Source: a virus
Taxonomy: Duplodnaviria; Caudoviricetes
IMG/VR virus record: IMGVR_UViG_3300049192_000032
Span: 1 to 36,346 of that record
Reading direction: 5' to 3' (one strand)
Length of the DNA stretch: 36,346 nt
The notes under the pieces were generated by a model. It was not told where the DNA came from and made no database searches. It saw only the letters and a list, made by a program, of their open reading frames with translations. Position numbers and translations under genes: made by a program. Every line of letters starts with the position of its first letter. Position 1 is the stretch's first letter. This document shows, piece after piece, positions 2,853 to 36,346 of the stretch.

Positions 2853-3005
2853 CCCATAGCGCCTTTACTCTGTCCCTAATTAACCAGTACTGTTGCCAAT
2901 CTGGCAACTGATAGCAGGCCCACCCTCGAGGTGGGCTTTTTGTTTGCAGGTGCGGATTTCTGGTGCCTATACGGATAACACAACCACCCGTAAAGGAGAT
3001 TCACC

Positions 3006-3304
3006 ATGGACACCTCACCAATCCTAGAAATCGTGCAGCAGCTTGGAGTAGCCCAGGCAAAAACAAAGACGACCTAATCACGGCCGCATTCGAGCGCCTA
3101 ACCGGTCGGCAGCTAGATATGGTTGCCGACAAAGACCGGTTGCACCGGGAAATCATCTACGACAAGGAGTTCTACTTCTTCAACAACAAGCCTTTTGTTG
3201 TCATCATGGAAGTATTTCCTGAGCCAACTGAAGATGAAGCAGGCCGGATTCTGCTCACGCCACAGATTAAGAGCGCATACCTAGGCGATATGCAACTGCC
3301 CTGA
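3006..3304 (+). pseudogene. Hypothetical gene split by a frameshift at an A5 run (about 3059-3063)
   Basis: Strong RBS AAAGGAG with ATG 3006 gives only 23 aa. The -1 frame continues NKDDLITAAFERL... to TGA 3304. Confidence 0.55.
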
Positions 3305-3521
3305 TTGCATTTGAATTGCTCACAAGCCCTCTTCGGAGGGCTTTCTTATTTGCAGGTACCGAATGCCCAAGCCCTTCTTTGGTCCGCTGATTTTAGAGTA
3401 TTCCTTCTAATATTTCGAAAAACATATAAAGAATGACCGTCATTCGGATAACACGTGCCTATACCTTGTAAGCCCAGGTGATTTGCCGGGGTCCAACACA
3501 CAACCACACGGAGATATCCAA

Positions 3522-4637: not shown

Positions 4638-4734
4638 GACGGCGCTTAGTCGTCATAGCTAGCCATGGTACAGATTTTCAACGTTGAAAACGTGGTGCCT
4701 ATACGGATAACAACAACCACATAGGAGTATCACC

Positions 4735-6020: not shown

Positions 6021-6093
6021 CAACAGGCCCCGCATTCCGCGGGGCTCTCGTTTTCAACGTTGAAAATCACAACCAACACGGAGACAATGAACA

Positions 6094-6479: not shown

Positions 6480-6601
6480 ACCAGCCACCTGCAAACAAGA
6501 GGCCGCCCGTGAGGCGGCCTTTTCGTTTTCAACGTTGAAAATTCAGGCGTGGAAGTTTGGTGCCTATACGGATAACACAACCACCGTAAAGGAGTATCAC
6601 C

Positions 6602-7024: not shown

Positions 7025-7235
7025 CATCAACCTATTGCCACCAAGGCCCTCTTCGGAGGGCTTTTTATTTGGGATACCGAATGCCAAACCCTTCCTTGGT
7101 CAGCCTTTGGTTAATTTAAGCCAATCCTAAGAAATATATAAAGATTGACCCTCATTTGGATAACACGTGTGCCTATACACAGTGTACCCCCGTGATTTGC
7201 GGGGATGCATTAACCAACCACACGGAGATATCCAT

Positions 7236-7571: not shown

Positions 7572-7642
7572 CCGTCAATTTAAGACGACCTGCCTACACA
7601 AAGTCCGACCAACTACACACACCACACACCGGAGAATTTCAA

Positions 7643-8140
7643 ATGTCCACAGCAAATTGGCTCACCCCCAACTATCGCTCCCGTCTTGCTAACAAGGCCG
7701 TCTACGCCTCGGCGCTCGCGACCATCATCGGCTCTCATGCCATCGCCTTGGCCGCCAACCGCCACAAAGACGTACAACTGGCCAACGTCAACCTGGAGCA
7801 CGTGGCTCCGCTAATCGACCAGGCCGCCAATGCCGCAACCCTGCTCATCAACGACAACGCAGCCATCGTCAAAAGCATGAGCGAAGAAGAGGCGAAGTAC
7901 ATGCGGTCGGACGCGCTCTGCCGCACCTACACCCGTGCCTTCGACTTGGCCGAGCAAGGCTGCATCGACCCGGTCGGCGCCCGCGTAGCCGACGAAATCT
8001 TGGAGCGCGCACGCCGCAATGTCGTCTGGCCAGAGCCAGCAAGCACCGCCGGCTTGGCCCAGCTGGACATGTTCCTGGTCGAGATGGCCAATGCAATCAA
8101 GCCGCTGCTGGCAACCCAGCAAGACCTCCTGGCAGCCTGA
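7643..8140 (+). CDS. Hypothetical alpha-helical protein
   Basis: C/A-rich leader, GGAG, ATG 7643, terminator at 8160-8188. Confidence 0.75.
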   Translation: MSTANWLTPNYRSRLANKAVYASALATIIGSHAIALAANRHKDVQLANVNLEHVAPLIDQAANAATLLINDNAAIVKSMSEEEAKYMRSDALCRTYTRAFDLAEQGCIDPVGARVADEILERARRNVVWPEPASTAGLAQLDMFLVEMANAIKPLLATQQDLLAA

Positions 8141-8243
8141 CCAACCCCTCTTGCCACCAAGCCCCGCATTCAGCGGGGCTCCTTTTTTCAACGTTGAAAA
8201 CGTGGTGCCTATACGGATAACACCAACCACCACGGAGACAACA

Positions 8244-8552: not shown

Positions 8553-8728
8553 TTTTCAACGTTGAAAACGCAGCCCCGTCCCTTCACAGGCGGGGCTTTT
8601 TGTTATCTATACGTTCACAAGGAGCCGGCCGCGGACGGCATCACATCGAGGACCGCGGAGAACAGGACATTGATTGCAACGCACATAGGCGCTCAGCCGG
8701 GGCGATAGACGACCGGTTCGGACTATGA

Positions 8729-9373: not shown

Positions 9374-9516
9374 TTCACTCATTCAAGCCCCGGCAAATCG
9401 CCGGGGCTATTCTTTGTGCGCAGCCGTTTTCAACGTTGAAAACGCAAGAGGCGCTCGTTTTTCAGGAGAGATAACACCAGTGCCTATACGAGGTTCCACA
9501 CACAACGGAGCCTCTA

Positions 9517-10629
9517 ATGGACACCAACAACAACACACCCTTCCCGGTCATCAACCACATCGACGACCTGCTGCCTCACATTGCCAACAAGCCTGAAATC
9601 CTGGTACGTCCTGGTCCGCTTGGCTCGACTGTCGTCTGCTACCAATTCCAGGACAACGACACGTTCGACAGCGCCTGGGCGGCTGAATGCCGCGGCATCG
9701 TCTTCGACCGCGATGGCAAGGTGGCAGCACGTCCGCTGCACAAGTTCTTCAACGTCGGGGAGCGTCCAGGCACACAGCCTGATTTGGCCAGCGCCGTACG
9801 AGTCATGGACAAGCGCGACGGCTCCATGATTCACACCGTCTGGCTCGATGGTCAGCTGCTGTTGAAGTCCAAGAAGGTATTCAAGAACGCCCAGACCGAC
9901 ATGGCTTGGGAGTGGCTGCGTCGCCCAGAGAATGCTTGGGTGCTGGACTTCTGCCACAACATGGCCAGCCAGAACGACACCTGCATCTTCGAACTGACCA
10001 GTCCATCTAACCGTATCGTTGTTGGCTACCCAGACACAGACATGCGGCTGCTGCACGTTCGCAAGAACGACACCGGCGAGTACTACAGCGGCGAGGCGCT
10101 GCGCATGATTGCCAAGGGCGTCTACGATGTCCGCCTGGTCGATGAGTACAACGGCATTGCGGACATCGGTCAGACTCTCGCTGACATGAAGGACGCTGAA
10201 GGCTTTGTGCTGCAGTTCGCCAACGGCGACATGGTCAAAGCCAAGTGCCCTTGGTACCTGAACCTTCACCGCACGCTGTCGTTCACCCGTGAACGCGACA
10301 TCGCGGAAGCCGCTCTGGAAGAACGCCTCGACGACATCAAGAGTGCTTTGACGACAACAGGTGTTGACCTCACCGCAGTCAATCGCATTGAGAGCCTGGT
10401 GAAGACCATCCTGCTCCAGACTCAGCAGCACATCACCGTGGTGCTCAATGACGACAAGGACCTTGACCGCAAGGACTTTGCCATCAAGCACAAGGGACAC
10501 CCTGCTTTCGGGATGCTGATGGCCGCCTACCAAGGCAAGGAGCCTGACTACAAGGACTGGTTCCGCAAACACGTGCTCAAAGAGGCGTTCAGCCTCGAGC
10601 CCGTCGGTGCAGTGGTTGCCGATGACTGA
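9517..10629 (+). CDS. T4 Rnl1 (RnlA)-family RNA ligase
   Basis: ECRGIVFD, RPLHKFFN, motif I KRDGS, FELTSPSNRIVV, EGFVL, VKAK. Confidence 0.9.
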   Translation: MDTNNNTPFPVINHIDDLLPHIANKPEILVRPGPLGSTVVCYQFQDNDTFDSAWAAECRGIVFDRDGKVAARPLHKFFNVGERPGTQPDLASAVRVMDKRDGSMIHTVWLDGQLLLKSKKVFKNAQTDMAWEWLRRPENAWVLDFCHNMASQNDTCIFELTSPSNRIVVGYPDTDMRLLHVRKNDTGEYYSGEALRMIAKGVYDVRLVDEYNGIADIGQTLADMKDAEGFVLQFANGDMVKAKCPWYLNLHRTLSFTRERDIAEAALEERLDDIKSALTTTGVDLTAVNRIESLVKTILLQTQQHITVVLNDDKDLDRKDFAIKHKGHPAFGMLMAAYQGKEPDYKDWFRKHVLKEAFSLEPVGAVVADD

Positions 10630-10746
10630 CCGTTTTCAACGTTGAAAACGCAGGCCCCTCCCCGGGGCCTTTCCTTTTTCAGGTGCAGATAACTGGTTGC
10701 TACACGTAGTGCAGCACTTCCGCTGCTCACACAACGGAGAACAACC

Positions 10747-11220
10747 ATGAAACTCACCCCTGACTACATCGCTTCCCAGGTGCTGACCTGCGCCTTTGAA
10801 TATGATGGCACGCACACCACTTGCCGCATCACGACCCGCCACGGCTCTCGGCACACCGGCGAGTCCGCCTGCCTGGACCCTGCCAACTACAACCGCGAGA
10901 TTGGCGAGCAGATTGCGCACAAGAACGCGCTCGACAAGCTGTGGGACTTGGAAGGCTACTTCATCAACAAGCTGGGCCTGTGCCATGTTCCGGGTCAGCT
11001 GACAGACGCCGATGACCTGCACTTTTACACGGACGAAGGCTACCCGCTGGGCGACGGTCTGCATCACAGCCAGGTGACGGTGCGCTTGGTAACCAAGACA
11101 GAGCCAAAGCCTGCGAACCAATACGTCATCCAACACGGAGACCTGGAAAAGTCTCCTGAGTTCGGACGCATGGTCGTAGAGGCCATCCTGGCAAACAAAG
11201 GACGTCTCGGCGTTCGCTGA
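10747..11220 (+). CDS. Phage gp49/gp66-family protein with a C-terminal extension (candidate Acb4-like nucleotide sponge)
   Basis: Family signature GESACLDPANYNREIGEQIAHKNALDKLWDLEGY. Confidence 0.75.
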   Translation: MKLTPDYIASQVLTCAFEYDGTHTTCRITTRHGSRHTGESACLDPANYNREIGEQIAHKNALDKLWDLEGYFINKLGLCHVPGQLTDADDLHFYTDEGYPLGDGLHHSQVTVRLVTKTEPKPANQYVIQHGDLEKSPEFGRMVVEAILANKGRLGVR

Positions 11221-11368
11221 ACCACCACTGACAACAAGGCCCGCTTCGGCGGGCTTCTTCATTTTCAACGCCCGTTTTCAACGTTGAAAAAGTGTTGAAA
11301 ACCGCCCTCGGCCCGGACTTATCTGTTTGGCTACACGAAGCACCAACAACAACACAAGAGGTGCTGCC

Positions 11369-11890
11369 ATGAACCATCTGTCCGAAGTCTTGCTGACAAA
11401 TATGCCCTGGGGGCTGCGTGCAGCTACCGGCCACTTCCTGCCGCTTCTGCTGGCGCTGATTTCACTTGGTCAGCTGCTGCCTCACTGGCGTAGCAAGCAC
11501 ACGCCGGCGTTCGTAGGCGGGATGATTCTGGCGGGCGGACTGCTGTACCTCACCTCGAGCATCTCCATCAAGTACATCGGTGGTGGCCACTTCTCGATTG
11601 CCGTGCTCATGATGCCCTTGGCTGCTGCTTGCATCGCCGGCGCGATTGCATTTACCTGCCAGGAACGCATTCCAGCCACGGCCGTCTGGGCCGGAGCCTT
11701 CTTCCCGGTCTATGTGGTCGACCTCATCCGCACGAATCAAATCTTCAAAGAGTTCTGGACAGGCATGCATGGCGTCGGTGGTGCCGGACCTCTGGACGCA
11801 CTGCTCTTCACGCCGGCTCTTGCTGTCGTCGGATGCTTGGCGTTCCAGTTTGCAGCTAAGACATGGAACCGGGTCGTGCTGAAGTCCTGA
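11369..11890 (+). CDS. Polytopic membrane protein (weakly DUF1614-like)
   Basis: About five hydrophobic segments and a C-terminal GVGGAGPLDALLF motif. GAGG RBS with ATG 11369. Confidence 0.65.
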   Translation: MNHLSEVLLTNMPWGLRAATGHFLPLLLALISLGQLLPHWRSKHTPAFVGGMILAGGLLYLTSSISIKYIGGGHFSIAVLMMPLAAACIAGAIAFTCQERIPATAVWAGAFFPVYVVDLIRTNQIFKEFWTGMHGVGGAGPLDALLFTPALAVVGCLAFQFAAKTWNRVVLKS

Positions 11891-17991: not shown

Positions 17992-18123
17992 GCCATCAAT
18001 TTCTGCTGACTGTACGAACCAGACCCCCGCATTTTGTGGGGGCTGTTTTGCTTTAGAAGGAATCCTCTAATTATTTACCCCTGAATTTTGCAGGGGCGCA
18101 GATAACACGTGCCTATACGGTAT

Positions 18124-18192
18124 GTAAGAGCAAATCGTTCTTACCTGCTGACGAGCAGTAAACCCCGGCTTACCAGTCCGGCCGGGGTTTTC
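18124..18192 (+). ncRNA. Candidate three-hairpin structured RNA or leader
   Basis: gtaaga/tcttac, ctgct/agcag and aaaccccggc/gccggggttt stems in tandem, right after the promoter motif at 18101. Confidence 0.4.
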
Positions 18193-18231
18193 CCGACCAG
18201 CTGACTAGGCCACTTTGCAAAGGACTTGGAA

Positions 18232-18885: not shown

Positions 18886-18947
18886 GGTGGCAAGCATAAA
18901 AAGTCGGTGTCTATACCAGATAACACAAACACTCTGGAGACACCAAC

Positions 18948-19766
18948 ATGACAACAGCAGTAGAACTCGGCCAAATCAACGCACAAGTTGAAGATTACGC
19001 CACACGCTCTATTAAAGAGCGCACTTTCGAGCGGCAGCGCGATGCTGAAACAGCTTTAAAGAAGTTGCCAACAAAACTCTACGACCGCAGCTTCGGCATG
19101 GGGCGTTTGGCACTATCTTGCGCATTGTTCGGTTTTGGCCGTGGCGCACGTCAACGTTTCGATGCAAAAGTGCTGGAAACCTACCGCGGAGGCAACATTA
19201 CGTACTCTGGCCCAGAACTGCGCCAAGACGACCAATCTGTTCTGCTGGGCCTGGTGTACTACATCAAAGACACCTTGATTGCAGACGAAATCAAGTTCAG
19301 CCCTCGCGAGTTCTGCCGCTTCATCGGCTGGTCTGGCTGTTCTACAGACGTTACGAAGCTGCGCGACTGCTTGGAGCGCATGACCGAGGCGCATCTGCGC
19401 ATCACCTTTGGCGGCAATAAAGGCGGCATGTTCTCGCTGGTGTCCCAATTCACGTGGGACGGCGATAAGTGGAGCGTGTGGCTGGCTCCGACCCTGCGTC
19501 GGCTGTTTGAAGACGGAACGACCTTCCTGCCAATTGAAGAGCGTGCGGCACTGACGGACGGACTGCAGACCTGGTTGGCGGGCTTCCTGCGCGCTCAATC
19601 GGATGTGTCGACTTTCGGCACTGACGACCTGCACAAGTTCTCAGGCACCGGCGCAAGCATCAAGGAGTTCGGCCGGCAGCTGCGCGACACGATGGACCGA
19701 CTTCAAGAGGTAGGCGTGGTCAAGGGATTTGACTTCGGCCGCGGACGTTTGACCGTGCAGCGTTGA
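18948..19766 (+). CDS. TrfA-like plasmid replication initiator
   Basis: ALFG...ITYSGPELRQDDQSVLLGLV, winged-helix FCRFIGWS...LRDCLERM and second wHTH LHKFSG...FGRQLRDTMDRL. Iterons directly downstream. Confidence 0.8.
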   Translation: MTTAVELGQINAQVEDYATRSIKERTFERQRDAETALKKLPTKLYDRSFGMGRLALSCALFGFGRGARQRFDAKVLETYRGGNITYSGPELRQDDQSVLLGLVYYIKDTLIADEIKFSPREFCRFIGWSGCSTDVTKLRDCLERMTEAHLRITFGGNKGGMFSLVSQFTWDGDKWSVWLAPTLRRLFEDGTTFLPIEERAALTDGLQTWLAGFLRAQSDVSTFGTDDLHKFSGTGASIKEFGRQLRDTMDRLQEVGVVKGFDFGRGRLTVQR

Positions 19767-19819: not shown

Positions 19820-20020
19820 GGCGTGAATCTACCCCACCAACGGAGCAAGTTAGGAACGGTCAGGCGTGAATCTACCCCACCAACGGCGTGAATCTACCCC
19901 ACCTATTTTCGAGAAAAGCCAATTAAATCAAGCACTTAATTTTGCTACCTTATACGTGCGGCGGTCGCTGAACGCTCCCTCGGAAATTATCCGACTTTCT
20001 TTTTTGTGGTTCTATAGAGA
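19820..20020 (+). other. Putative oriV: three iterons plus AT-rich tract
   Basis: GGCGTGAATCTACCCCACC(AAC) at 19820, 19863 and 19885 (spacing 43 and 22 bp), then AT-rich sequence from 19904 to about 20020. Confidence 0.8.
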
Positions 20021-25862: not shown

Positions 25863-25958
25863 CCGACCTGCGTCACAGCACTCCAGAAGCCCGGCATCGC
25901 CGGGCTTTTGTTCGTCTGCTCGCTACACGAGGTATCCACCACAACAGGAGACCTTCCT

Positions 25959-26366
25959 ATGAGCGACAAGAACAAACTCGTACCCGTGCCCATCGACGTC
26001 ACTGTCGGCGATGAGACCTTCCACATCCTCCCATTTGGCTTTGAGATGCAAGTGTGCCTGTCCGCCAAGCTGGCAGCCGCCTTCGCTCAGGCTGGCTTCA
26101 AGGAGGGTGACACGCTGTCCTTCTCGGACCTCGTTGACCATGCCGGTGATGTGCTGTTCGACGCTGCTGCGGTAGCCATCGGCAAGCCTCGCAGCTACCT
26201 GTCGACCCTGCCGGAGTTCGAAGACGGCATGCGCATCCTGGAAGCCGTCTATGAAGCGAACGCCGAGGTATTCGCAAAAAAAGTCCTGCCGTCTCTGATG
26301 AAGCGTCTGCAGACGATGGCGAGCAACGGCGCGCTCTCCAGCTTGATGAAGTCGTTGCTCGCCTAA
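25959..26366 (+). CDS. Tail assembly chaperone (G-like)
   Basis: AGGAG RBS, between major tail and TMP, slippery A7G at 26276-26283. Confidence 0.8.
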   Translation: MSDKNKLVPVPIDVTVGDETFHILPFGFEMQVCLSAKLAAAFAQAGFKEGDTLSFSDLVDHAGDVLFDAAAVAIGKPRSYLSTLPEFEDGMRILEAVYEANAEVFAKKVLPSLMKRLQTMASNGALSSLMKSLLA

Positions 26367-26627: not shown

Positions 26628-29600
26628 ATGTCCGACCTGACACTTTCATTCAAAATCAATGCAAACACTGCTGCCGCGATGCAGCAGATTGCCGCTCTAC
26701 GCCAGGTGCTGCTAGGCATCGGTGCTACGCCGCTTCCAGACCCCACCAAGAACGTCCGTGCTGGCATCGACGCAACCTCGACTAGCTTGGTTGGCCTGAC
26801 CGCCAAGTTGGCCGGCGCAGCTGCCGCAGCTACGGCGTTCGGGGCCGCCATGAAGAAAGGCTTCGATACCAACGCAGAGTCGGAGAACGTTGCCCTTGGC
26901 CTGAAGGGAATCATTGCCTCGCTGCAAGATGTCCGGGACGCCAGTGGCAAGCCAGCCGAAGGCATGGAGCGCCTGAACATTGCTGGCGTTGAGGCAGAGC
27001 GTCAGCTGAAGCTGCTGCGTGTTGCGGGCATGCAGACCAGCGCCGAGTTCAAAGACCTGGCCAAAGCGTTCCAGACTGCGCTTGGAGCAGGCTCCACCGC
27101 AGGTCTCGGTGTCGACCAAATTCGTGAGTTGACCGTCACGCTAACTCTGGCAGCCAGCGCGTTCAACCTTGCCGGTGACCAGCTGTCGTCCGAAATCCGG
27201 GCCATGCTTTCCGGCGACCAAGTCGACAACAGCCAGATTGCCCAAGGTCTGGGTATCAGCGGTGCACAAATCAAGCTGTGGCGTGAGCAAGGCAAGCTGG
27301 TAGAGGAACTGAACAAGCGCCTCAAGCTGTTCAAGATGCTCGGTGACGAAGCTGGCAAGTCGTGGTCCGCTACGCTTTCCAACGTAGCTGACGGCATCTC
27401 TCTGTTCCTAGGCAAAACCACCAAGGGTGCCTTCGATGAAGTCAAGAAGGCACTCCAGGACGCCCTGGGCGGAGTCTTCGACGAGAAGACAGGTGAAATC
27501 AAGGCGCAGTTCCAAGGTTTGGCTGACTTCGCCTCTCAAGTGTTCAGTGGCGTAGGCTCTCTGCTGGCCGACGGCGTGAATGGTGCAGTAGAAGGCGCTA
27601 AGGAGTTCTCTGCTTGGCTGGAAAAGAACAACCAGACCATCGGCGAGATTTTTGATGCTCTTAGCCGCATTGGCCGTGTATTCGCCGGCTTGATTGGCGG
27701 AGCCTCCGACTTCGCCGGAAAGATGACCGAAGCCGGTGACGGTACCAAGTTTGTGCGGGACCTCCTGAACGGAGTCGCCTTGGTTGTGGCTGCCATCGGC
27801 GACCTGACCAAAGGCCTAGCCGGCGCCTTCGCCTATGTTGGCAGCACCGTGGCCAGCATCCTGTTGGACCCGCTCATCGGCGTCTCGCGTGTGCTGTCCC
27901 GAATCACTGGTAAGGACTACTCAGCAGGCCTGGAGAAAATCAAGGCTGAGACGGAGAAGTTCAAGGCCGCGGCCTTCAAGTTTGGCGCCGACGGTTTCAA
28001 ATTCGACGGCGTGAAGAAGGTAGCCGCCGAACTGCAGGCGGCCTATGCTGCCAGCCCCATCAAGGCTCTGGATACCAAGAACAAGACTACCGCTCCCGGC
28101 GGAACCATCAAGACTCCGGCGCGCAAGCCAAGTGAAGATGCCAAGAAGGCCGCTGAGGCCTACCGCGACGCTCTGCGGGCCTACGAGGATGCCAAAGCCG
28201 ATGCCGACAAGAAGATTGCTCAGGTAGCGCGCAATGCCTCGCTGCGTGACCTCGAGACTTCGCTGAAGGAGCGCTTGATTAGCCAGGAGGAGTACCTGAA
28301 GAAGAAGGCAGCGCTGGACCAGAAGGAAGTTGACCAAGAACTCCAGGCAGCCCGCAACAAAGAAGCAGCCATCCAGAAGCAAATCAATGGCACCGCGGAC
28401 AAAGCCAAGAAGAAGAAGCTGGAGGGAGACCTCGAAAAGGTCAAGGCGGACATTCAGGAACTGGAGGACAAGGGCGCTGCCATTCCAGTGATGCTGAAGC
28501 TTCAGCTTGCTGAGTTCAAGGAGCAGGTGGAAAGCCTGCGTATCGACATCAAAGCGAACATCCTTGATGCGCAAGGTCAGCCATTTGACGCGGCTGTCTC
28601 GCGGCTCAAGAAGGAGACCCAGGACCTGTTGAATGACCCACGAGTACGCGGAAACGCCGACATGGAGTCCCTAGTTCGGCAGCAGTCTGCTGACAAACAG
28701 GCCCGCCTAGAACTGGAGCAGGCCAAGCGCCGAATCGACGAAGAGGCCTCGTACTTCTCCTTGGCTCAACAGCGCATCGCCCGTGAAGTGGAGCAAGGCA
28801 AGAAGACTGAGATTGAAGCAGAGAAGGAACTCCAAGCCGAGCGTGAGAAGACCCGCGCGGGCCTTGAGGAGTACATCGCCACCCTGGAGAAGCTGGCCAA
28901 GGCCTATCCGAACAATAAGGAGTTTGTCCTAGCACTGGCCCAGGCCCGTGACCAGCTTGAGCAACTGAACACGACAGTGGACAAGACGGCAACGTCCATC
29001 AACAGGGCATTCGCGGACAGTGTTGTAGACGGGCTACGCCAGATGCGTACCGAAGCGGTAAGCGTCACCGACTTCCTGCGGAACCTGTTCTTCAAGCTGT
29101 TTGATGACATTGCCAACCGCGCGTTGACGGCGTTGGGCGACGAGTTGTTCAAGGGACTTCAGGGCATGAAAGGCGGCGGTATCGGAGGGTTGTTCTCCAG
29201 CCTGTTCAGCGGCGGTGGGGGCGGTTTTGGCAGCATGTTCTCTAGCTTCTTCTCCGGAATGGGCTCGATGTTCGGCTTTGCCGGCGGTGGCCACGTCCAA
29301 GGACCCGGAACTGGTACCAGCGACAGCATCCCTGCTTGGCTGTCGAACGGCGAATTCGTGTTGAAAGCCTCCGCGGTCCGCCGCTGGGGACTCGGCTTCC
29401 TGAATACGCTGAACGCCGGCGTGATGCCGATGGCTCCTCGCTTTGCAGATGGCGGCCTGGTGTCTGTTCTCGGCCAAGGTGGTGGTGGAACACCTAACGT
29501 GACCATGCAGAACAACAACATGGCCCGGCTGTACCTCGACCCGGCACATGTGGCGTCTGAGATTGGCCGTCAGCCTCAGTTTGGGCGCGATGTCATAAAC

Positions 29601-29645
29601 GTCATCCTTGCGAACAAGGGGAAGCTGGGCCTGAGCCGAATCTGA
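26628..29645 (+). CDS. Tape measure protein
   Basis: 1005 aa, Ala/Gly-rich helical, C-terminal FAGGGHVQGPGTGTSDSIPAWLSNGEFV motif. Confidence 0.93.
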   Translation: MSDLTLSFKINANTAAAMQQIAALRQVLLGIGATPLPDPTKNVRAGIDATSTSLVGLTAKLAGAAAAATAFGAAMKKGFDTNAESENVALGLKGIIASLQDVRDASGKPAEGMERLNIAGVEAERQLKLLRVAGMQTSAEFKDLAKAFQTALGAGSTAGLGVDQIRELTVTLTLAASAFNLAGDQLSSEIRAMLSGDQVDNSQIAQGLGISGAQIKLWREQGKLVEELNKRLKLFKMLGDEAGKSWSATLSNVADGISLFLGKTTKGAFDEVKKALQDALGGVFDEKTGEIKAQFQGLADFASQVFSGVGSLLADGVNGAVEGAKEFSAWLEKNNQTIGEIFDALSRIGRVFAGLIGGASDFAGKMTEAGDGTKFVRDLLNGVALVVAAIGDLTKGLAGAFAYVGSTVASILLDPLIGVSRVLSRITGKDYSAGLEKIKAETEKFKAAAFKFGADGFKFDGVKKVAAELQAAYAASPIKALDTKNKTTAPGGTIKTPARKPSEDAKKAAEAYRDALRAYEDAKADADKKIAQVARNASLRDLETSLKERLISQEEYLKKKAALDQKEVDQELQAARNKEAAIQKQINGTADKAKKKKLEGDLEKVKADIQELEDKGAAIPVMLKLQLAEFKEQVESLRIDIKANILDAQGQPFDAAVSRLKKETQDLLNDPRVRGNADMESLVRQQSADKQARLELEQAKRRIDEEASYFSLAQQRIAREVEQGKKTEIEAEKELQAEREKTRAGLEEYIATLEKLAKAYPNNKEFVLALAQARDQLEQLNTTVDKTATSINRAFADSVVDGLRQMRTEAVSVTDFLRNLFFKLFDDIANRALTALGDELFKGLQGMKGGGIGGLFSSLFSGGGGGFGSMFSSFFSGMGSMFGFAGGGHVQGPGTGTSDSIPAWLSNGEFVLKASAVRRWGLGFLNTLNAGVMPMAPRFADGGLVSVLGQGGGGTPNVTMQNNNMARLYLDPAHVASEIGRQPQFGRDVINVILANKGKLGLSRI

Positions 29646-29660
29646 GCCTTGCGCTATACG

Positions 29661-29735
29661 TGTTGTAGTTCTCCTTGTGTGTTGTGTGTGTGGAGGGGGC
29701 TCTCGGTGCAATGCCGGGGGCCCTTTTCTTTTTTC
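29661..29735 (+). ncRNA. Candidate G/U-rich antisense sRNA (sRNA1)
   Basis: GCTATACG motif at 29653, then tgttgtagttctccttgtgtgttgtgtgtgtggag, then an intrinsic terminator at 29697-29735. No RBS/ORF inside. Confidence 0.55.
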
Positions 29736-29797
29736 AGGGGATAAAACTCTGGTGCCTATACGAGATAACACAGCACAACGCACCCTTGGAGAACGCA

Positions 29798-30157
29798 ATG
29801 ACCACCCCCATTCACCACATCAACTACGAGTTCAACAGCACCGGCCTCTCGCCCGCTGAGTGCTCGTTCCATGCCCGCGATGTCCAGGAAGCCCTGGCCG
29901 AGCATTTCGGTCTGCCCTACGACGCTGTGCGCACAAAGTTCGGTCCGAACCTCGAGCCCGTGGACGTGCGCGTGATGCGCTCCGCTGGCAGCACCCACGA
30001 CTACGACCGGAACATTGAAGCCATGAAGGTGGTCATGCCGCTGCTGCAAGACATCCGGTACAAGCCGGCCGTCGTGGCCGACCTTCGCGCTCCTGGCGCT
30101 GGACACAAAGAGGTGCTCATCCAGCTGGTGCGTCCCCCGCAAATCCTGGGGGTGTGA
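29798..30157 (+). CDS. Hypothetical protein
   Basis: Promoter motif at 29752, GGAG RBS, ATG 29798. Confidence 0.7.
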   Translation: MTTPIHHINYEFNSTGLSPAECSFHARDVQEALAEHFGLPYDAVRTKFGPNLEPVDVRVMRSAGSTHDYDRNIEAMKVVMPLLQDIRYKPAVVADLRAPGAGHKEVLIQLVRPPQILGV

Positions 30158-30399
30158 TGGCCGATGAAGCGCAGAAAGACTACGACTTCGTCGTTATACG
30201 AACAAGGAAGTCAGACGGCACGGTGACGACCATCAGCTGCAAGTCGACCGACTACTTCAAGCTGTGCCGCAACTACCCGAACAACACTGACCGACTTCTT
30301 GCCATCCGGTCCGCCAGCACTCGATACGACGATGAGCGCGCCGCCGGCAAGGCGAAGGGAACCCGCAGCGCCTACATCCGAAAAGCGCTGCTGAACTGA
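30154..30399 (+). CDS. Small basic protein, possible DNA-binding (RHH-like tail)
   Basis: Coupled start. C-terminal GTRSAYIRKALL resembles helix B of ribbon-helix-helix proteins. Confidence 0.55.
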   Translation: MMADEAQKDYDFVVIRTRKSDGTVTTISCKSTDYFKLCRNYPNNTDRLLAIRSASTRYDDERAAGKAKGTRSAYIRKALLN

Positions 30400-30434
30400 A
30401 CGACAAGGCGCGACGCCTACGACGCGCTAGACCG

Positions 30435-30553
30435 CCCGACTAACACCTGAAACACGGAAGCATTCGGGAATCACGGTCAGTATCGTAGGAAGTGGTGGTC
30501 CCTCCTTGCCGCCCACTGGAGCCCCTGTAGAAATGCGGGGGCTTCGCCTTTCT
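30435..30553 (+). ncRNA. Candidate anti-Shine-Dalgarno sRNA (sRNA2)
   Basis: GCTAGAC motif at 30425, no convincing ORF, stem agtggtggt/gccgcccact with loop CCCTCCTT (30500-30507), then a terminator-like hairpin at 30518-30552. Confidence 0.45.
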
Positions 30554-30575
30554 GGACCCGCTCTCTAGACGGTGC

Positions 30576-31052
30576 ATGAACACATGCACACAACAACTAG
30601 ACGACGCCCGTGAAGTCCTCAGAGGCTATGGCCCGCTTCCAACTTGGTTGGAGCCGGAACGGCTCGCCTTTGTCCTGCACCTTGATGAGGCTTCGCCCTC
30701 GAACAACACCATCAAGGCGATGCACTTCCGCGCCTACAAGAAGCTGCGGGAGGACTTCTCGGCCAAAGTGAAGGCGGCCTTAGATGATGCGGAGGCTCCC
30801 CATCTGGAGCACTCGGCGCTGTTCATCGTCCGTCGCTCTGCCGGCACGCTGGATTGGGACAACGCCCTGGGCGGCATGAAACCCATCCTCGACTGCCTAG
30901 TGCAGCCATCCGCCCGTAATCCGTCCGGCTTGCACATCGTCCAGGACGACAACCCCAAGAACATGCCTTATCCGCCGTTCATGCGACAGCTACCGGCCAA
31001 ACGAGGGGAAGGCAGCACCGAAATCTACGTGTTCTCAGTGGACCCGGTATAG
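30576..31052 (+). CDS. RusA-like Holliday junction resolvase
   Basis: PSNN, DWDN...KPILD and DDN acidic motifs typical of the RusA fold. Confidence 0.7.
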   Translation: MNTCTQQLDDAREVLRGYGPLPTWLEPERLAFVLHLDEASPSNNTIKAMHFRAYKKLREDFSAKVKAALDDAEAPHLEHSALFIVRRSAGTLDWDNALGGMKPILDCLVQPSARNPSGLHIVQDDNPKNMPYPPFMRQLPAKRGEGSTEIYVFSVDPV

Positions 31053-31074
31053 GCGCTGTTAGCTAGACGGTTGA

Positions 31075-31932
31075 ATGACAACCGCACAACTCTTCCCCGC
31101 ACACCGAGACGCTTCCACCCCTTGCACCGAATTGCTGGAGTGGCTTACTGACGTCCAAATTGCTCTTGACGGCACAGACGACGCCCGTCGGCAGCTTCGC
31201 GCCTATCCGCGGCACACGTACAGCTATGACGTGGTGCTCCCACCGAGTGCCGACAAGTCGCCTCTTGATGCGCTGCGAACGGCGGAGTCGTTCATCGTGC
31301 CGCTCTGGTGCCATGCGTTCCAGCGTCCTGACCTGGAAGCCACGGCAGGAATCGCCACCACCGACCCAAAGACTGTTGCACTAACAGCAACGTCAGAAGG
31401 CGTGTTGTATGACGCGGACGCGTTCACCTGGCCAGACGACTACTACATCGCGGCACCGGCCGCACTGGCTCGACCAGTAGCGGACACCCGCTCGATTGCA
31501 TACATCACCAAGACCGCGCAGAAGTCCAGCGTTTCATTCCGCCTGCTCGACTTTAAAGAAGTTGTAGAGGACTACGACGGACCAACGGTCGATGGGCTTC
31601 CCAGCCTGGACACCTTCACGCCTTACTGGAATGAGCCAGCAGAGGAAGTGACTGAGGTTGCTGACAAGTTCGACGAGGGCCATCTGACGCTCTATGACCT
31701 GCACTACTTCCAGCGTTCGTTTTCGCTGTCGCTGACCTTGCCATCGCGTGAGGTCATCGAGGAATTTCGCCGCCTCTTGTTCGCCCTTAAAGGTCGTCTG
31801 AATCCGCTGTCCTGGACGGCTCCGCAAGACGAAGACCCGACCACTTGGCGCCTGGCCAGCGATGGCGTCGAACTGACGTTCCTGCGCCCCAACTTCGCGA
31901 CTTGCAAGCTGTCGCTCATCCAACTTACGTGA
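31075..31932 (+). CDS. Putative distal tail / minor tail protein
   Basis: ELLEWLTDV...RRQLRAYPR and LKGRL motifs, first gene of the tail-tip cluster. Confidence 0.7.
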   Translation: MTTAQLFPAHRDASTPCTELLEWLTDVQIALDGTDDARRQLRAYPRHTYSYDVVLPPSADKSPLDALRTAESFIVPLWCHAFQRPDLEATAGIATTDPKTVALTATSEGVLYDADAFTWPDDYYIAAPAALARPVADTRSIAYITKTAQKSSVSFRLLDFKEVVEDYDGPTVDGLPSLDTFTPYWNEPAEEVTEVADKFDEGHLTLYDLHYFQRSFSLSLTLPSREVIEEFRRLLFALKGRLNPLSWTAPQDEDPTTWRLASDGVELTFLRPNFATCKLSLIQLT

Positions 31933-31939
31933 GGGACTG

Positions 31940-32728
31940 ATGCTCTACCTGTACCGTTTTTCGCAGTATTCGCAGCCGAACGCCCAAGGTACGTTGGTGG
32001 CGGAATGGGCCCAAACCAGCTACGAGGACCAGGTCTACGTGGCGGACCACGACCTGACCTACGAACCAACGGCCATCACGCACGGAGAAGTTTCGTACTC
32101 CGGCGAGCAGGTGTCCGGCACGCTGACGCTTCGTGTGGCTCGTGACCATCCGGTAGCCGTGAAGTTCTTGCCGGGCTACCCGTCGTCGAGTGTCTACCTC
32201 CGCGTGTTTGAGATGGACGACCCATCAGACACGCCACAAGTTGTTTGGCGCGGCCGCATCCGGGCTTGTGAGTTCGACCAGCTGACCGCCTCGCTGACCT
32301 GCACCAATGGCCTGGAGAAGCTTGGACGCCTGGCCCTGTCCATCACGCACCCAACGACGTGTCAGTGGGAGTTGTACGGCACTCGCTGCGGGGTGAACCA
32401 GGCCACCTACACGCGCACCGGAACCATCTCCGCCATCTCGACCGATGGCTTGACGCTGACCACCACCCTCTCCGAGGTTAACAACTGGTTCAAGGCGGGC
32501 CTTGTTGAAGTCAACGGGCAGCTACGGACCTGCATCGGCAACACCGGCGGTGCGCTCTTGCTGAATGCGCCGTTCTTCGGAATCAGCGTCGGCGATGGCG
32601 TCAGCGCAGCAAAGGGCTGTGACAAGTCATCTAGCGCCACCAGCGGATGCAAGTCATTCAGCAACTACACGCACTTCTCCGGCGATGAACTGCCGGACCC
32701 GAAAAACTACTTCGCCACCGGGCTCTAA
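31940..32728 (+). CDS. Lambda gpL-like / DUF2163-BR0599-family tail hub protein
   Basis: VVWRGRI, CQWELYGTRCGV and GCDKS...CKSFSN..HFSG Cys cluster. Confidence 0.82.
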   Translation: MLYLYRFSQYSQPNAQGTLVAEWAQTSYEDQVYVADHDLTYEPTAITHGEVSYSGEQVSGTLTLRVARDHPVAVKFLPGYPSSSVYLRVFEMDDPSDTPQVVWRGRIRACEFDQLTASLTCTNGLEKLGRLALSITHPTTCQWELYGTRCGVNQATYTRTGTISAISTDGLTLTTTLSEVNNWFKAGLVEVNGQLRTCIGNTGGALLLNAPFFGISVGDGVSAAKGCDKSSSATSGCKSFSNYTHFSGDELPDPKNYFATGL

Positions 32729-32731
32729 GAA

Positions 32732-35344
32732 ATGGATTTCCTCTCGTACCTGCTGCAGTTCTTCCTGTCGCAGCTTCTCGCCGAACTGTTCCGGCCGAAG
32801 CCGAAAATCTCTCGTCCCGCCGCTGTTGGCCTGAAAGAGTTGGCTTCTCCGACAGCTGACGAGAACCGCTGCCTGCCCTGGTTGATTGGTCGCGCTAAGC
32901 AAGACGCGCCCAACCTCACCGGTACATTCGACTACTTCGCCAACCCGCGGTCCAAGAACATCCGGAACGGGCTTGGCTCTTCGTACTCGCAGCCGCTAGG
33001 CTACGACTACTACCTCGGCATGAGCATGACCCTGTGCGCAGGTTCAGGCGTGCGCCTGCGCGAAATCTGGGCGGGCACGGGTGACGATGCCGTGAAGATT
33101 TGGTCGGGCAACGTGACCACAGGCGGAACCATCTCGCTTAACTATCGCAAGTACGACAAGTCAGACAACGACCACGACTATCCGATGGGCTTCCAGGGTG
33201 TCGTCGAGTTCTACTCCGGCCACACCACCCCCTCGCCGTACCTCGTCGCTAAGCAAGGCGCCGGCAACGTGCCGTCGTGGCCTCACGCCACGTACGTCGT
33301 TCTGCGCGGTGCCTCGACCTCCAGCGGGATGTGGGTCGGCACGACTGGCCAAATGCTGCCGCTGTCGTTCGTCATCGAGCGCTTCCCTGACGCTGCCACA
33401 TACAACCCAGCTGGTGTTTCCCAGCCGGTAGGCGCCTTGAACAACAACGGCACCGATGCCAACGCTGCCTACGTCATCGCTGAACTGCTGACCGATGCCA
33501 CCTTCTGGGCAGGCGAACACCCGGACTTTGTCGACATGACGGCCTTCGGTCAGGCGGCTCTTGGCTGCTCGACAGACGGTCACTACATCGGCACCCTCAT
33601 CGACACGCAACGCACAACCGGTGATGTTGTGCTCGAGTTCTGCCGTCAAATTGGCGGTGTGCTCCAGCCCGACCCGGTGACTGGCCAGCATGCTTTGCGC
33701 CTCATCCGGGCCGGTGATACGCCTGTGCTGGCGCTGGATGACAGCAACGTTGTAGAGGTTGCTTCGTTCTCTCGCAACAGCGTAGACGAGGCAACCAACC
33801 AGCTGTCTGGCAGCTATCTGGACCGCGTCGTATGGCAGAAGCGCCCGCTGACTACGCAACAAGACTTGGCCGCCATCAAGACCGCCGGCAGCATCATTGC
33901 CGGTACGGCTGAGTACTCATCCATCACAGACCCGTCGATGGGCGCAAAGTTGTTGGCCCGTGACCTGCGCGCTTTGTCCTCTCCGCTGGCCAAGGCTCGA
34001 CTGACTGCGATTGTTGAAAAGCGTCAGCGCTTCCTGCCTGGTGACCTGGTGACCTGGACCAACTCTCGCCTCGGGATTGCTGGCCTGGGCATGCGCGTGA
34101 CGTCCGCTCGGTACACCAAGCCTGGCGAGAACCAGTGCGAACTGGAACTGGTTGAGGACGTGTTCGGCGGCGGCCAGAACGTCTACGCCGCACCGCTGCC
34201 GGTTAGCCACGGCCCTGAAAATGTCGGAAGCGAACCGCCTCCATCGGCTCCGCCGGCGGCCATCAGTTCCATGTTGGATGGCACGTTCATCACTTCCGCA
34301 CCCTATGCCCTGACCGGAGATAACGCAGACCACGGCCTGGCAATGTGCTTCCCGCCAAGCAGCGATGCGCGAACCTACGACATCAACTGGTACGTGAACA
34401 GCGACCCGACTGTCCTGTACCAGGCGGAGCGCAAGAACATCAATTTCAGTGTGTACGGCACGCTTGCAATAGCCTTGTCCGCAAGTGGAACGCCTGCATC
34501 CATCACGCTGAACGTGAACGCTGCCAACGCTGCGGCGCTGGCTCGGGTTCAGAGCCGGTCAGTCTTCGTGTCCATCGGTTTCCACAACAGTACCCTCGGC
34601 ACGAGTGAAATGCTCCAGGTTGGCAGCTTCACGCTGACCTCTGGCGGTACCCAGTGCGTGCTGGCTGGCATCACCCGCGGCATCTGGGATACGTGGCCAC
34701 GTGAGTTCGCGGTGAACACTCCGGTGTACATCTGGCTCGACTTCCAAGTCGACGAAATCCCGCTGGCCACCAACATCTACAGCACCTCCCTGACCCTGGT
34801 TGAGAAGTACTCAGGCCAGTCCGCTGTCGGCCTCAAGTCGATGGCACACAACATCCTGGGTGACTCCCCGCTGTCAGGCGCAGTGGACCTTATCCGTGGT
34901 TCGGATGGCTTCTCGTCCGGCGGTCTCAGCTATGCCCGCTCGGCGTATCCGTACGGCCCAGGGAACATCAAACTGAACGGTGTTTTGGGTGGAAGCCTGT
35001 CCACTCCCGCAACTGGTGTGAGCGTTCCTAGCGGTGGCGGCCCTGTGACCGTGGCGTTCAATCCGCGCAATCGCATGGCACGTGGACTGTCGCCGTGGGC
35101 AACTGGTGATGGCCTTGCTGAACCCAATGTAGTCCACGAAGTTTCGATGTACCGCTTCAATGGCACGGGCTGGGACTTCCTCACGGCAGTGGTTGCGGGA
35201 GTGGGAGCCACCAGCGCAACGCTCACGTTCCCAAGCGGAATTCCGCGTCCGGCCAAGGTGCGAATTGACATCACAGCCCAACGTCCATCGGGCTCCACGT
35301 TCATCGCCAGCGCCCCGCAGTCCTGGTACTGGACGGTGACCTAA
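32732..35344 (+). CDS. Tail tip / central tail protein (gpJ-like)
   Basis: PTADENRCLPWLIG, GYDYYLGM, NAAYVIAELLTD, LRLIR, PGDLV...MRV and GITRGIWDT motifs. Confidence 0.85.
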   Translation: MDFLSYLLQFFLSQLLAELFRPKPKISRPAAVGLKELASPTADENRCLPWLIGRAKQDAPNLTGTFDYFANPRSKNIRNGLGSSYSQPLGYDYYLGMSMTLCAGSGVRLREIWAGTGDDAVKIWSGNVTTGGTISLNYRKYDKSDNDHDYPMGFQGVVEFYSGHTTPSPYLVAKQGAGNVPSWPHATYVVLRGASTSSGMWVGTTGQMLPLSFVIERFPDAATYNPAGVSQPVGALNNNGTDANAAYVIAELLTDATFWAGEHPDFVDMTAFGQAALGCSTDGHYIGTLIDTQRTTGDVVLEFCRQIGGVLQPDPVTGQHALRLIRAGDTPVLALDDSNVVEVASFSRNSVDEATNQLSGSYLDRVVWQKRPLTTQQDLAAIKTAGSIIAGTAEYSSITDPSMGAKLLARDLRALSSPLAKARLTAIVEKRQRFLPGDLVTWTNSRLGIAGLGMRVTSARYTKPGENQCELELVEDVFGGGQNVYAAPLPVSHGPENVGSEPPPSAPPAAISSMLDGTFITSAPYALTGDNADHGLAMCFPPSSDARTYDINWYVNSDPTVLYQAERKNINFSVYGTLAIALSASGTPASITLNVNAANAAALARVQSRSVFVSIGFHNSTLGTSEMLQVGSFTLTSGGTQCVLAGITRGIWDTWPREFAVNTPVYIWLDFQVDEIPLATNIYSTSLTLVEKYSGQSAVGLKSMAHNILGDSPLSGAVDLIRGSDGFSSGGLSYARSAYPYGPGNIKLNGVLGGSLSTPATGVSVPSGGGPVTVAFNPRNRMARGLSPWATGDGLAEPNVVHEVSMYRFNGTGWDFLTAVVAGVGATSATLTFPSGIPRPAKVRIDITAQRPSGSTFIASAPQSWYWTVT

Positions 35345-35386
35345 GGCCATTCCCTAGACCCCTTGTGAACAACACAGGGGGTCTCG

Positions 35387-35995
35387 ATGACACCGGAACA
35401 ACTTCAAGCAGCCACCGGCTGCACTGCCGCCGCGGCAGCCAAGTACGCGGAACACCTCACGGCCGCGATGGCCAAGTACGGCATCGCTACCAAGCTGCAA
35501 GTGGCAGGCTTCATCGGCAATTGCGCCGAGGAAAGTGGCCTCTTCACCGTCGTCCGCGAGAACTTGAACTACAGCGCCAAGCGCCTGATGAAGGTGTGGC
35601 CCGCACGCTTCCCCACCTTGGCCAGCACGGCTGGTTGCGTCATGAATCCTGTAGGCCTGGCAGAGCGTGTCTATGCCGGCCGCATGGGCAACACCCAGCC
35701 AGGTGACGGTGGCAAGTACCTGGGCCGCGGCCTCATCCAGCTGACAGGCAAAGACTGGTACAGCCGCTATTCGAAAGCCACCGGAGTGGATGCTGTAGGC
35801 AAGCCAGACCTGCTTCTTGAACCCTTCTACGCAGCTGATAGCGCGGGCTGGTTCTGGAAGCAAGCAGGCTGCAATCCCTTCTGTGATGCTCAAGATTGGC
35901 ACGGCCTGACCAAGCGCATCAACGGCAATCCGGACGCAAACTTTAAAGAGCGCAAACGCCTGATTGACCTTTGCCTGAATGCTCTCGGCGCCTGA
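35387..35995 (+). CDS. Glycoside hydrolase family 19 endolysin
   Basis: ESG.F..RENLNYSA, GDGGKYLGRGLIQLTGK, SAGWFW, TKRING. Confidence 0.92.
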   Translation: MTPEQLQAATGCTAAAAAKYAEHLTAAMAKYGIATKLQVAGFIGNCAEESGLFTVVRENLNYSAKRLMKVWPARFPTLASTAGCVMNPVGLAERVYAGRMGNTQPGDGGKYLGRGLIQLTGKDWYSRYSKATGVDAVGKPDLLLEPFYAADSAGWFWKQAGCNPFCDAQDWHGLTKRINGNPDANFKERKRLIDLCLNALGA

Positions 35996-36219
35996 CCCTA
36001 CACCAGCCCCCTGTTGATTCAGCTAACAACAGGCCCGTCTGCCTCCTAAGCCCCGTTCCAACAAGTTTTGGCGGGGCTTTGTTATCTGCCATCCACCCGA
36101 GGGACTACGCCCGAAATCAAGTCCACGCCAGATAACGCCGGTGGCTATACGAAGCATGAACGAGTGCACGCGGTGTGCACCAACCAAACATAAAAGAAAG
36201 CACACATCATGCGCAAAAC

Positions 36220-36346
36220 CATCTTCTACCGCGTATCCGGCTGCGTGAACGCCGAAGGCCTGCAGACAAGCATCTGCGTGCATCCAGACCAACTCGCTCG
36301 ACTTCAGAAGTTCGCGTACAACGACGTCCGCACCCTGAACACAGCT
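36220..36346. repeat. Terminal overlap, identical to 1-127
   Basis: Exact direct repeat of the window start. Confidence 0.95.

Follow-up and report, generated by a model that had tools for sequence, protein, structure and literature searches.

A conserved phage gene for a predicted small RNA complementary to the leaders of many of the phage's own genes

Directly after the tape-measure gene of a soil phage lies a short unit that, judged by its sequence, is a real, conserved and not previously described gene for an RNA of about 70 nt, with a strong case for translational repression of multiple targets. The best explanation that we can offer is that this RNA is a late repressor of early, accessory and replication genes, which would act by covering the ACA enhancer and the GGAG of their messages, and that virion messages would escape; we give this complete account about an even chance of being correct. 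The more general claim, that under some condition the RNA represses such leaders by base pairing, is highly probable when four readings of the data are taken jointly. Sequence and comparison show a box-seed-terminator unit, its conservation, its complementarity to leaders, and a split between GGAG-led accessory genes and structural genes that are poor in Shine-Dalgarno (SD) sequences. An initial annotation of this DNA had proposed a trans-acting, multi-target, GcvB-like RNA directed against the phage's own leaders, and both the conservation of the unit and pairing above that of shuffled sequences argue for that proposal.

The window, by which we mean the entire stretch of 36,346 nt that was analysed, corresponds to a complete virus record, which carries direct terminal repeats. 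Scans against PHROGs and Pfam identified a serine recombinase, a TrfA-like rep gene, Mu-like head genes, a tape-measure gene (26628-29645, + strand), tail genes and an endolysin. The phage sequence is present in soil metagenome runs; none of the public runs listed as containing it is an RNA run, which is no guide to whether the unit is expressed. Contigs of two public runs cover the RNA unit without a single letter change (X1, 28957-31500, possibly the source; X3, 29646-29796). These contigs, and a layout that runs from a box at 29653-29659 to a terminator, confirm the earlier observation of a non-coding unit with a strong terminator after the tape-measure gene.

Protein alignments yielded five distinct related records (G001-G004 and G406), the relatives examined being 80 of 142 confirmed loci from one such search; the element in a further record, G407, is that of G002 letter for letter, and G004 is a 14.8-kb fragment. 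G001 is a provirus whose capsid protein is identical over 305 residues to one named from Caldimonas thermodepolymerans, and therefore the phage family is taken to infect Burkholderiales. On this sequence evidence, we regard the family as temperate soil phages of that order. At one end of G003 (L049:70-400, - strand) there is an apparent tRNA-Leu gene together with a partial repeat, which marks G003 as an integrated prophage, and the family carries both rep and integrase-type genes.

Other searches defined how widely the unit could be traced. A pattern scan of IMG/VR gave 27 matches, all of which proved on inspection to be chance reverse-strand ribosome sites; a second scan gave 31 matches with one true homologue, G003, and the last pattern recovered only G406. 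Single-protein scans with the tape-measure and tail-tube proteins found no useful relative, and in the genome collection a tail-tube alignment gave 0 matches and a capsid alignment only four distant Mu-like loci. The phage family that carries the unit was not found in genomes sampled from the likely host order or its families (sets of 401, 56, 10 and 68), with one of these scans giving distant matches only. A sequence-only model of the five RNAs, run over 87 sources (1.48 Mb), returned its training sequences and a weak reverse match to a target leader of G002, and the same model, in a search run without a positive control, matched nothing in 151 genomes. No description of such an RNA was found in the open-access literature, subscription papers being outside the scope of that search.

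The unit begins with a promoter-like box, GCTATAC (29653-29659, + strand), of a class that can be written SCTANAC and that would serve as a -10 element. Of 18 start codons that closely follow such a box in six genomes, 17 are 12-13 nt away from the first base of the box. This spacing is consistent with leaderless messages and places the predicted 5' end of the RNA at 29665-29666. The predicted RNA (29665-29735, + strand) comprises an anti-SD core, UCUCCUU (29670-29676), a G/U tract complementary to ACA/CAC-rich enhancers (29677-29691), and an intrinsic terminator with a 16-17-bp stem and a U run (29692-29735; stem 29692-29728, z -3.7). A box of its own with predicted promoter function, a non-coding body and an intrinsic terminator are present in 5/5 homologues (the window and four relatives), in all of which CTCCT is invariant; the mean unpaired probability of the core is 0.70-0.96, and no ATG within the RNA is conserved across the five.

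In the minimum-energy fold of the 71-nt RNA, the 5' 27 nt are all unpaired and the 16-bp terminator contains the GGAG within its stem. The hairpin between CTCC and GGAG that had been thought to expose a G/U loop does occur, as a side state making up 30% of the ensemble, but it is not the minimum-energy structure, and the GGAG is absent in G406, G003 and G001. For a transcript that reads through from the tape-measure gene, folding predicts a sequestered core. G/T-alternating 20-mer tracts occur genome-wide only once on the + strand, in the RNA unit, and three times on the - strand, each time at a target gene (3512, 7631 and 9541), a coincidence that therefore suggests more than chance. No Rfam family reached its gathering score in the window: six weak matches at E <= 10 fell far under the cut-off, the GcvB and c4/CI models were not matched, and the best weak match of the RNA itself was to suhB/MmgR (14.7 bits versus a gathering score of 41). 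A tRNA scan of the window found none, and a sigma-70 consensus scan of 27000-36346 found no promoter.

Box, CUCCU core, G/U tract and terminator occur together in four of the five distinct relatives, whose tape-measure identity falls as low as 38%. At the syntenic place in G004 there is a terminator only, and the RNA unit is missing. Seed identity to the window is 87% in G406 and 86% in G003, whereas four-fold sites in the neighbouring tail gene agree at only 39/106 (G406) and 28/93 (G003), that is 30-37%, and the adjacent spacer at 27%. The seed is unpaired in all five homologues while the hairpins beside it differ; three of the four relatives carry an additional, variable 5' hairpin, and the terminator hairpins of G002 and G001 differ from that of the window. 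Covariation in the terminator is modest, with 3 of 16 pairs changed on both sides among three alignable copies and 38/500 shuffles giving an equal result.

The unit does not depend on the tape-measure gene. It lies 4-10 nt past the tape-measure stop codon in four phages and 1.1 kb away in G406, where a minus-strand gene of about 1 kb intervenes, so the unit is not merely a terminator or 3' UTR of the tape-measure gene. The inserted gene (L106:7388-8377, - strand, about 330 aa) has a canonical TTGACA-17-TATAAT promoter. G002 retains the RNA unit without the downstream gene. Only G002 and G003 have an ATG 9 nt past the GGAG of the minus strand, a distance that might point to an origin of the RNA from an inverted leader. 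It had been suggested that the unit could be the leftover ribosome-binding site of a deleted minus-strand gene, with a decayed ATG; this was not borne out, since the frames in G002 and G003 are unrelated (28 and 50 aa), no frame is conserved, and in both the window and G406 the ACG is accounted for as the promoter box's complement. A type I toxin-antitoxin arrangement was also rejected because an opposite-strand open reading frame exists in only 2/5 homologues, and these two short products are unrelated and by eye not hydrophobic. Self-masking of the tape-measure message, by pairing of its 3' UTR with its 5' UTR, was discarded because the tape-measure start pairs at just -8.0 kcal/mol and the unit is uncoupled from that gene in G406.

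Pairing energies were calculated with ViennaRNA (not IntaRNA) as duplex energy plus opening costs, which replaced noisy raw duplex energies that took no account of accessibility. Gene starts came from our own gene-calling script, after which four of those in the window were placed manually and a further one was introduced; 53 starts were called in the window, three doubtful minus-strand frames were left out to give 50, and contexts were trimmed to the putative transcript starts. At a cut-off of -13 kcal/mol, which like the gene classes was picked post hoc after the data had been seen, 16/50 starts pair with the RNA: 14/27 accessory or replication genes, 0/17 structural genes, 1/5 lysis genes, and the tail assembly chaperone. 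When a fixed, untrimmed context of 70 nt is used, only 9/50 starts pass the same cut-off. Accessory and replication genes differ from structural genes in pairing (Mann-Whitney p 0.015 in the window), and avoidance by structural genes recurs in the relatives with p values of 0.001 (G002), 0.11 (G001) and 0.038 (G003).

The RNA outperforms most dinucleotide shuffles of itself. The mean of its ten best sites in the window is -18.9 kcal/mol, versus -15.7 +- 1.2 for shuffles, and 2/100 shuffles do as well, compared with 1/100 when only the tract is shuffled, 2/100 when only the core is shuffled, and 0/100 with a random tract. The result is repeated in the three relatives that make up the rest of the test set (G406 being outside it), with 0/100 shuffles as good in G002, 2/100 in G001 and 4/100 in G003. 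Shuffled RNAs still reach -14.5 to -15.9, and therefore composition supplies most of the pairing energy and base order adds about 3 kcal/mol. In an unbiased scan of both strands, start regions take three of the four best sites in the window, the three best in G002 and the single best in G001, and 5, 5 and 2 of the respective top 20, against an expected share of less than 2%; G001 has few strong targets of its own by this measure. A phage's own RNA is the best partner for 5/13 orthologous leaders (p 0.34), which gives no significant own-versus-other signal in a comparison to which five low-complexity seeds bring little power.

The best predicted target is the leader of the gene that follows the unit (29798-30157). 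This gene has a separate box, at 29755, and its leader pairs at 29767-29797 (+ strand) with -28 to -29 kcal/mol. The orthologous leader is the top site in G001, and reaches only -10.7 in G003 and -14.6 in G406. The gene itself is conserved in G003, G406 and G001, with a weak DUF932 lead (feature score 0.91). Among accessory genes, predicted target leaders (all on the + strand, energies in kcal/mol) precede the genes at 7643 (7614-7642, -27.4, the top site genome-wide), 3522 (3495-3521, -23.2) and 8244 (8220-8243, -18.1). Further predicted targets are the leaders of a gp49/66-family gene at 10747 (10727-10746, -19.5), the gene at 11369 (11342-11368, -17.8), the RNA ligase gene at 9517 (9496-9516, -16.5), the tail assembly chaperone gene at 25959 (25937-25958, -15.2) and the TrfA-like rep gene at 18948 (18923-18947, -14.8, or -6.3 if the context is left untrimmed). 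Another five leaders, at 2978-3005 (start codon at 3006), 4710-4734, 6068-6093, 6575-6601 and 7213-7235, give -14.2 to -17.5, and gene 12926 in the lysis block gives -16. The leaders of capsid, tube and protease genes pair weakly with the RNA of their own phage in the RNA-bearing phages (0 to -7).

Seven leader motifs had been quoted at the outset as resembling the reverse complement of the RNA. All are present within 1 base of the positions given, and six of the seven are followed 6-8 bases on by a start codon; the motif at 8616 has no start. Target leaders had also been expected to expose a C/A loop, and are instead mostly single-stranded C/A stretches. GGAG stands ahead of 2/17 structural genes versus 19/32 other genes, and in each of eight window duplexes examined the GGAG is covered (8/8). 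Pairing over the SD would therefore act by occlusion, so that of the two roles first considered for the RNA, repressor and hairpin opener, the former is favoured and the latter was rejected.

In the window at 8606-8725, a box is followed by a leader that opens with 9 nt exactly complementary to the RNA core, lacks a start codon and carries five GGA motifs ahead of gene 8726, which is conserved at 41-43% in G001 and G002 and is nuclease-like by eye; this leader is possibly a decoy for the RNA or an Rsm/Csr-type leader. At 2963-3304, a ribosome site and the ATG at 3006 open a short frame only, with a 113-aa frame alongside, and this could reflect a frameshift or a broken gene.

The promoter box offers a view of when the RNA might be made. 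GCTATACG is not confined to the RNA unit, being among 28 SCTAYAC boxes on the + strand versus 1 on the - strand, most of which lie a short way ahead of genes, and a box is found ahead of the RNA in all five homologues. The looser SCTANAC form, which is family-wide, has 34 sites on the + strand and 1 on the - strand (e.g. 2966, 9483, 21471, 23803 and 31062). Its next base is T at 0/34 sites in the window and at 3 in all six genomes, which differs from the standard -10 element, and the box suggests a phage-specific transcription factor. Many structural genes behind such a box are leaderless or SD-less. A motif recognized by eye and picked post hoc, RATAAM, lies beside the box in 11/14 target promoters, 0/9 structural or lysis promoters and 0/5 RNA promoters; because the RNA promoters lack it, as structural and lysis promoters do, the RNA looks co-regulated with virion genes. 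The late timing, which we infer from promoter class alone through this by-eye motif, is the weakest step of the explanation.

According to the explanation that we prefer, transcription from the box would begin late in infection and would yield a stable, terminator-capped RNA, whose U-tailed terminator suggests the use of Hfq. The seed would pair over the ACA-rich enhancer and the GGAG SD of many messages, 30S binding would be lost on those GGAG-led messages, and their translation would be blocked. Capsid and tail messages, most of which lack an SD or a leader, would escape the RNA, and early, accessory and replication genes would be turned down late. Transporter-type messages of the host that share this leader would probably be targeted too. 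The tail chaperone does not fit a pure early shut-off: it is a late gene, yet it is a predicted target in all five phages (-10.4 to -13.3 kcal/mol with the RNA of the same phage in four relatives). Its targeting may be a second job of the RNA that sets the dose of chaperone.

If a phage RNA sorted the genes of its own genome according to their leaders, the early/late programme would gain a post-transcriptional level of control, and the lack of SD sequences in structural genes would have an explanation. A bolder version, which is doubtful though worth stating, is a two-class translation code in which one universal anti-leader RNA silences ACA+GGAG messages, both the phage's own early messages and a slice of those of the host, and virion messages are SD-less and hence immune. 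If true, this would amount to an RNA-only handover of ribosomes from early to late genes and from host to phage, which would also act against related phages. These ideas are directly testable, as one relative is a prophage of the cultured Caldimonas thermodepolymerans.

Host anti-SD sRNAs such as AbcR, cuckoo/CcsR, RsaE and CyaR present an unpaired CUCC-type motif that pairs with the SD of many messages. Unlike these, the phage RNA has a single motif in an open 5' arm joined to a G/U tract, is phage-borne and has no Rfam match. GcvB silences ACA motifs that act as translation enhancers, and the phage RNA resembles it in directing a single-stranded G/U seed at ACA-rich enhancers upstream of the SD, in having many targets (here predicted) and in ending with an intrinsic terminator (PMC3879156). 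In contrast to GcvB, it is phage-encoded, has its seed fused to an anti-SD core so that enhancer and SD would be covered together, has the phage's own genes as predicted targets, and does not match the Rfam GcvB model. At about a third of GcvB's length, it is best described from these features as an RNA that would work like GcvB plus an anti-SD element, yet is not a GcvB member.

The P4 CI RNA is a phage-encoded, trans-acting RNA that pairs near the ribosome-binding site of a message of its own phage. The same can be said of the c4 antisense RNA of P1 and P7, which confers phage-specific immunity (heteroimmunity) by specific pairing and which has one target operon (ant) and sites presented in loops (PMC12197685). 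The phage RNA differs from c4 in its one open seed, a dozen or more predicted leaders, absence of specificity among relatives, its own promoter and terminator, and the absence of an Rfam match. Where c4 and CI have one cognate operon and phage-specific pairing, this RNA has 16/50 starts at or below the cut-off and is the best partner of its own leaders in just 5/13 comparisons (p 0.34), and the likeness to c4 and CI initially proposed therefore fails in both structure and specificity.

PreS of lambda, an Hfq-type sRNA whose targets are mainly host genes (bioRxiv 10.1101/2024.10.31.621285), and VpdS of VP882, a phage Hfq-type sRNA (PMC12197685), are likewise multi-target base-pairing RNAs of temperate phages. 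They favour lytic growth, and in the accessible parts of these sources neither is described as an anti-SD or anti-enhancer RNA that sorts the phage's own genes by leader type. The prophage anti-sRNA AgvB, which mimics a C/A-rich target and sponges GcvB, is another phage RNA built on the GcvB seed/target sequence pair (PMC12197685), with the opposite polarity to the present RNA, which mimics the G/U seed. Few phage trans-acting RNAs have been characterized, and those described in the accessible parts of these sources act on one phage message (c4, sar, OOP and aQ) or mainly on host messages (PreS).

The accessory region of the window also contains elements that could bind proteins. A perfect 16-bp palindrome, TTTTCAACGTTGAAAA, is present in ten copies (4464, 4675, 6051, 6526, 8185, 8553, 9427, 10633, 11275 and 11895), eight of which lie 23-66 nt ahead of a box in an operator-like position; the G001 variant, TTTCGACGTCGAAA, shows symmetric changes. 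Two paralogous small proteins (30157-30399, and 36209-36346 continuing at 2-328), both kept in relatives, have confident models (pLDDT 85 and 93) with a beta-hairpin plus helices. Both show weak ribbon-helix-helix (RHH)-like fold matches (permuted Arc, CopA and RelB, with an Atlas RHH_4 row under its bar), and the second also matches ECF sigma region 2 weakly (Z <= 5.3). Foldseek found nothing for them at E <= 0.001, their best Z scores were 5.3 and 5.2, and no Pfam family was assigned; on their models, they are candidate regulators. Each sits in a transcript whose first leader is a predicted RNA target. With ten palindromes and two weakly RHH-like proteins, control at the protein level is possible. 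Similar extended promoter/leader blocks (ATAAAG..TGACC..CATT..GGATAACAC, box and 5' hairpin) occur in the window at 3420-3521 and 7130-7235, and another precedes the downstream gene in G406 (L106 8625-8670).

The same RNA and the same pairing could instead serve immunity, with the RNA made in the lysogen or plasmid state, where it would silence rep and early genes and also block related phages in the manner of c4 or CI. We consider this unlikely, although several observations are in its favour: rep and the leading genes of most accessory units are among the predicted targets, the RNAs cross-pair with leaders of relatives, the RNA promoter lacks a palindrome or RATAAM site by which the RNA might be repressed, and scans of 50 proteins against PHROGs and of 28 against Pfam gave no classical CI repressor. 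However, the box class of the RNA precedes capsid and tail genes, which presumably cannot be on in a lysogen, the accessory gene inserted in G406 uses a canonical promoter instead, and the palindromes and RHH-like candidates offer protein repression. Moreover, c4 heteroimmunity rests on specific pairing (PMC12197685), and no specificity among relatives is seen here. The initial annotation had placed the RNA in a lysis/plasmid decision made without CI; because the RNA promoter is similar to the ones found before structural genes, a shut-off of early genes late in infection is the better fit.

Equally unlikely, in our assessment, is a GcvB mimic that acts mainly on host messages for nutrient transporters and envelope proteins, with the phage leaders being bystanders that share the host's ACA+GGAG design. 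Two genomes chosen by tRNA match, neither of which is the true host, served as proxies: at or below -13 kcal/mol, 26/259 starts pair in G037 (63% GC, 400 kb) and 7/203 in G071 (48% GC). The G037 proportion is not significantly lower than the phage's 9/50 with untrimmed contexts (p 0.14), and genome-wide such host targets, including the 8/259 at or below -16, would outnumber those of the phage. The best G037 proxy matches include a permease and a tricarboxylate-binding-type protein, identified by eye from their N-termini, and the 5/13 result gives no significant sign of covariation with phage leaders. Against this reading, phage starts are enriched at or below -16 relative to these proxies (5/50 versus 8/259 in G037, p 0.04; 1/203 in G071), and structural genes avoid both GGAG and, in the window, G002 and G003, strong pairing.

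Somewhat less probable again is a dedicated regulator of one or two messages, namely the downstream operon (the 29798 protein and an RHH-like protein) and/or the tail chaperone, for which all other pairing would be incidental. The downstream leader indeed ranks first or second among sites in the window and first in G001, the unit and the downstream gene move together in G406, and the chaperone leader pairs in all five phages; yet G002 keeps the RNA without the downstream gene, the downstream leader is weak in G003 and G406 (energies above), and several other leaders pair equally well or better.

The remaining readings are both very improbable. Rather than regulating mRNA by pairing, the RNA could be a protein decoy, since U-rich single strands bind S1 and Hfq, or one half of a sponge pair with the 8616 leader, whose exact core complement precedes no start codon, but the shuffle tests show that base order matters beyond composition. 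That there is no independent RNA, only a tape-measure terminator or 3' UTR or what is left of the leader of a vanished minus-strand gene, would suit the position of the unit past the tape-measure stop in four phages, the minus strand that reads as a full leader with an ATG at 9 nt in G002 and G003, and the lone terminator of G004, but it is opposed by the unit's own box in all five, its displacement in G406, a seed far more conserved than silent sites, minus-strand frames that are unrelated or absent, and the weak pairing of the tape-measure start.

Additional non-coding elements lie near rep. Boxes followed by apparently non-coding stretches occur between the head morphogenesis gene and rep in the window (18112-18200), in G002 (14055 and 14757) and in G001 (14087), and these are further small RNA candidates on the basis of their layout. 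Just downstream of rep, at 19825-19900, the window has three iteron-like repeats of GCGTGAATCTACCCCAC, and G001 and G002 carry repeats of their own at the same place.
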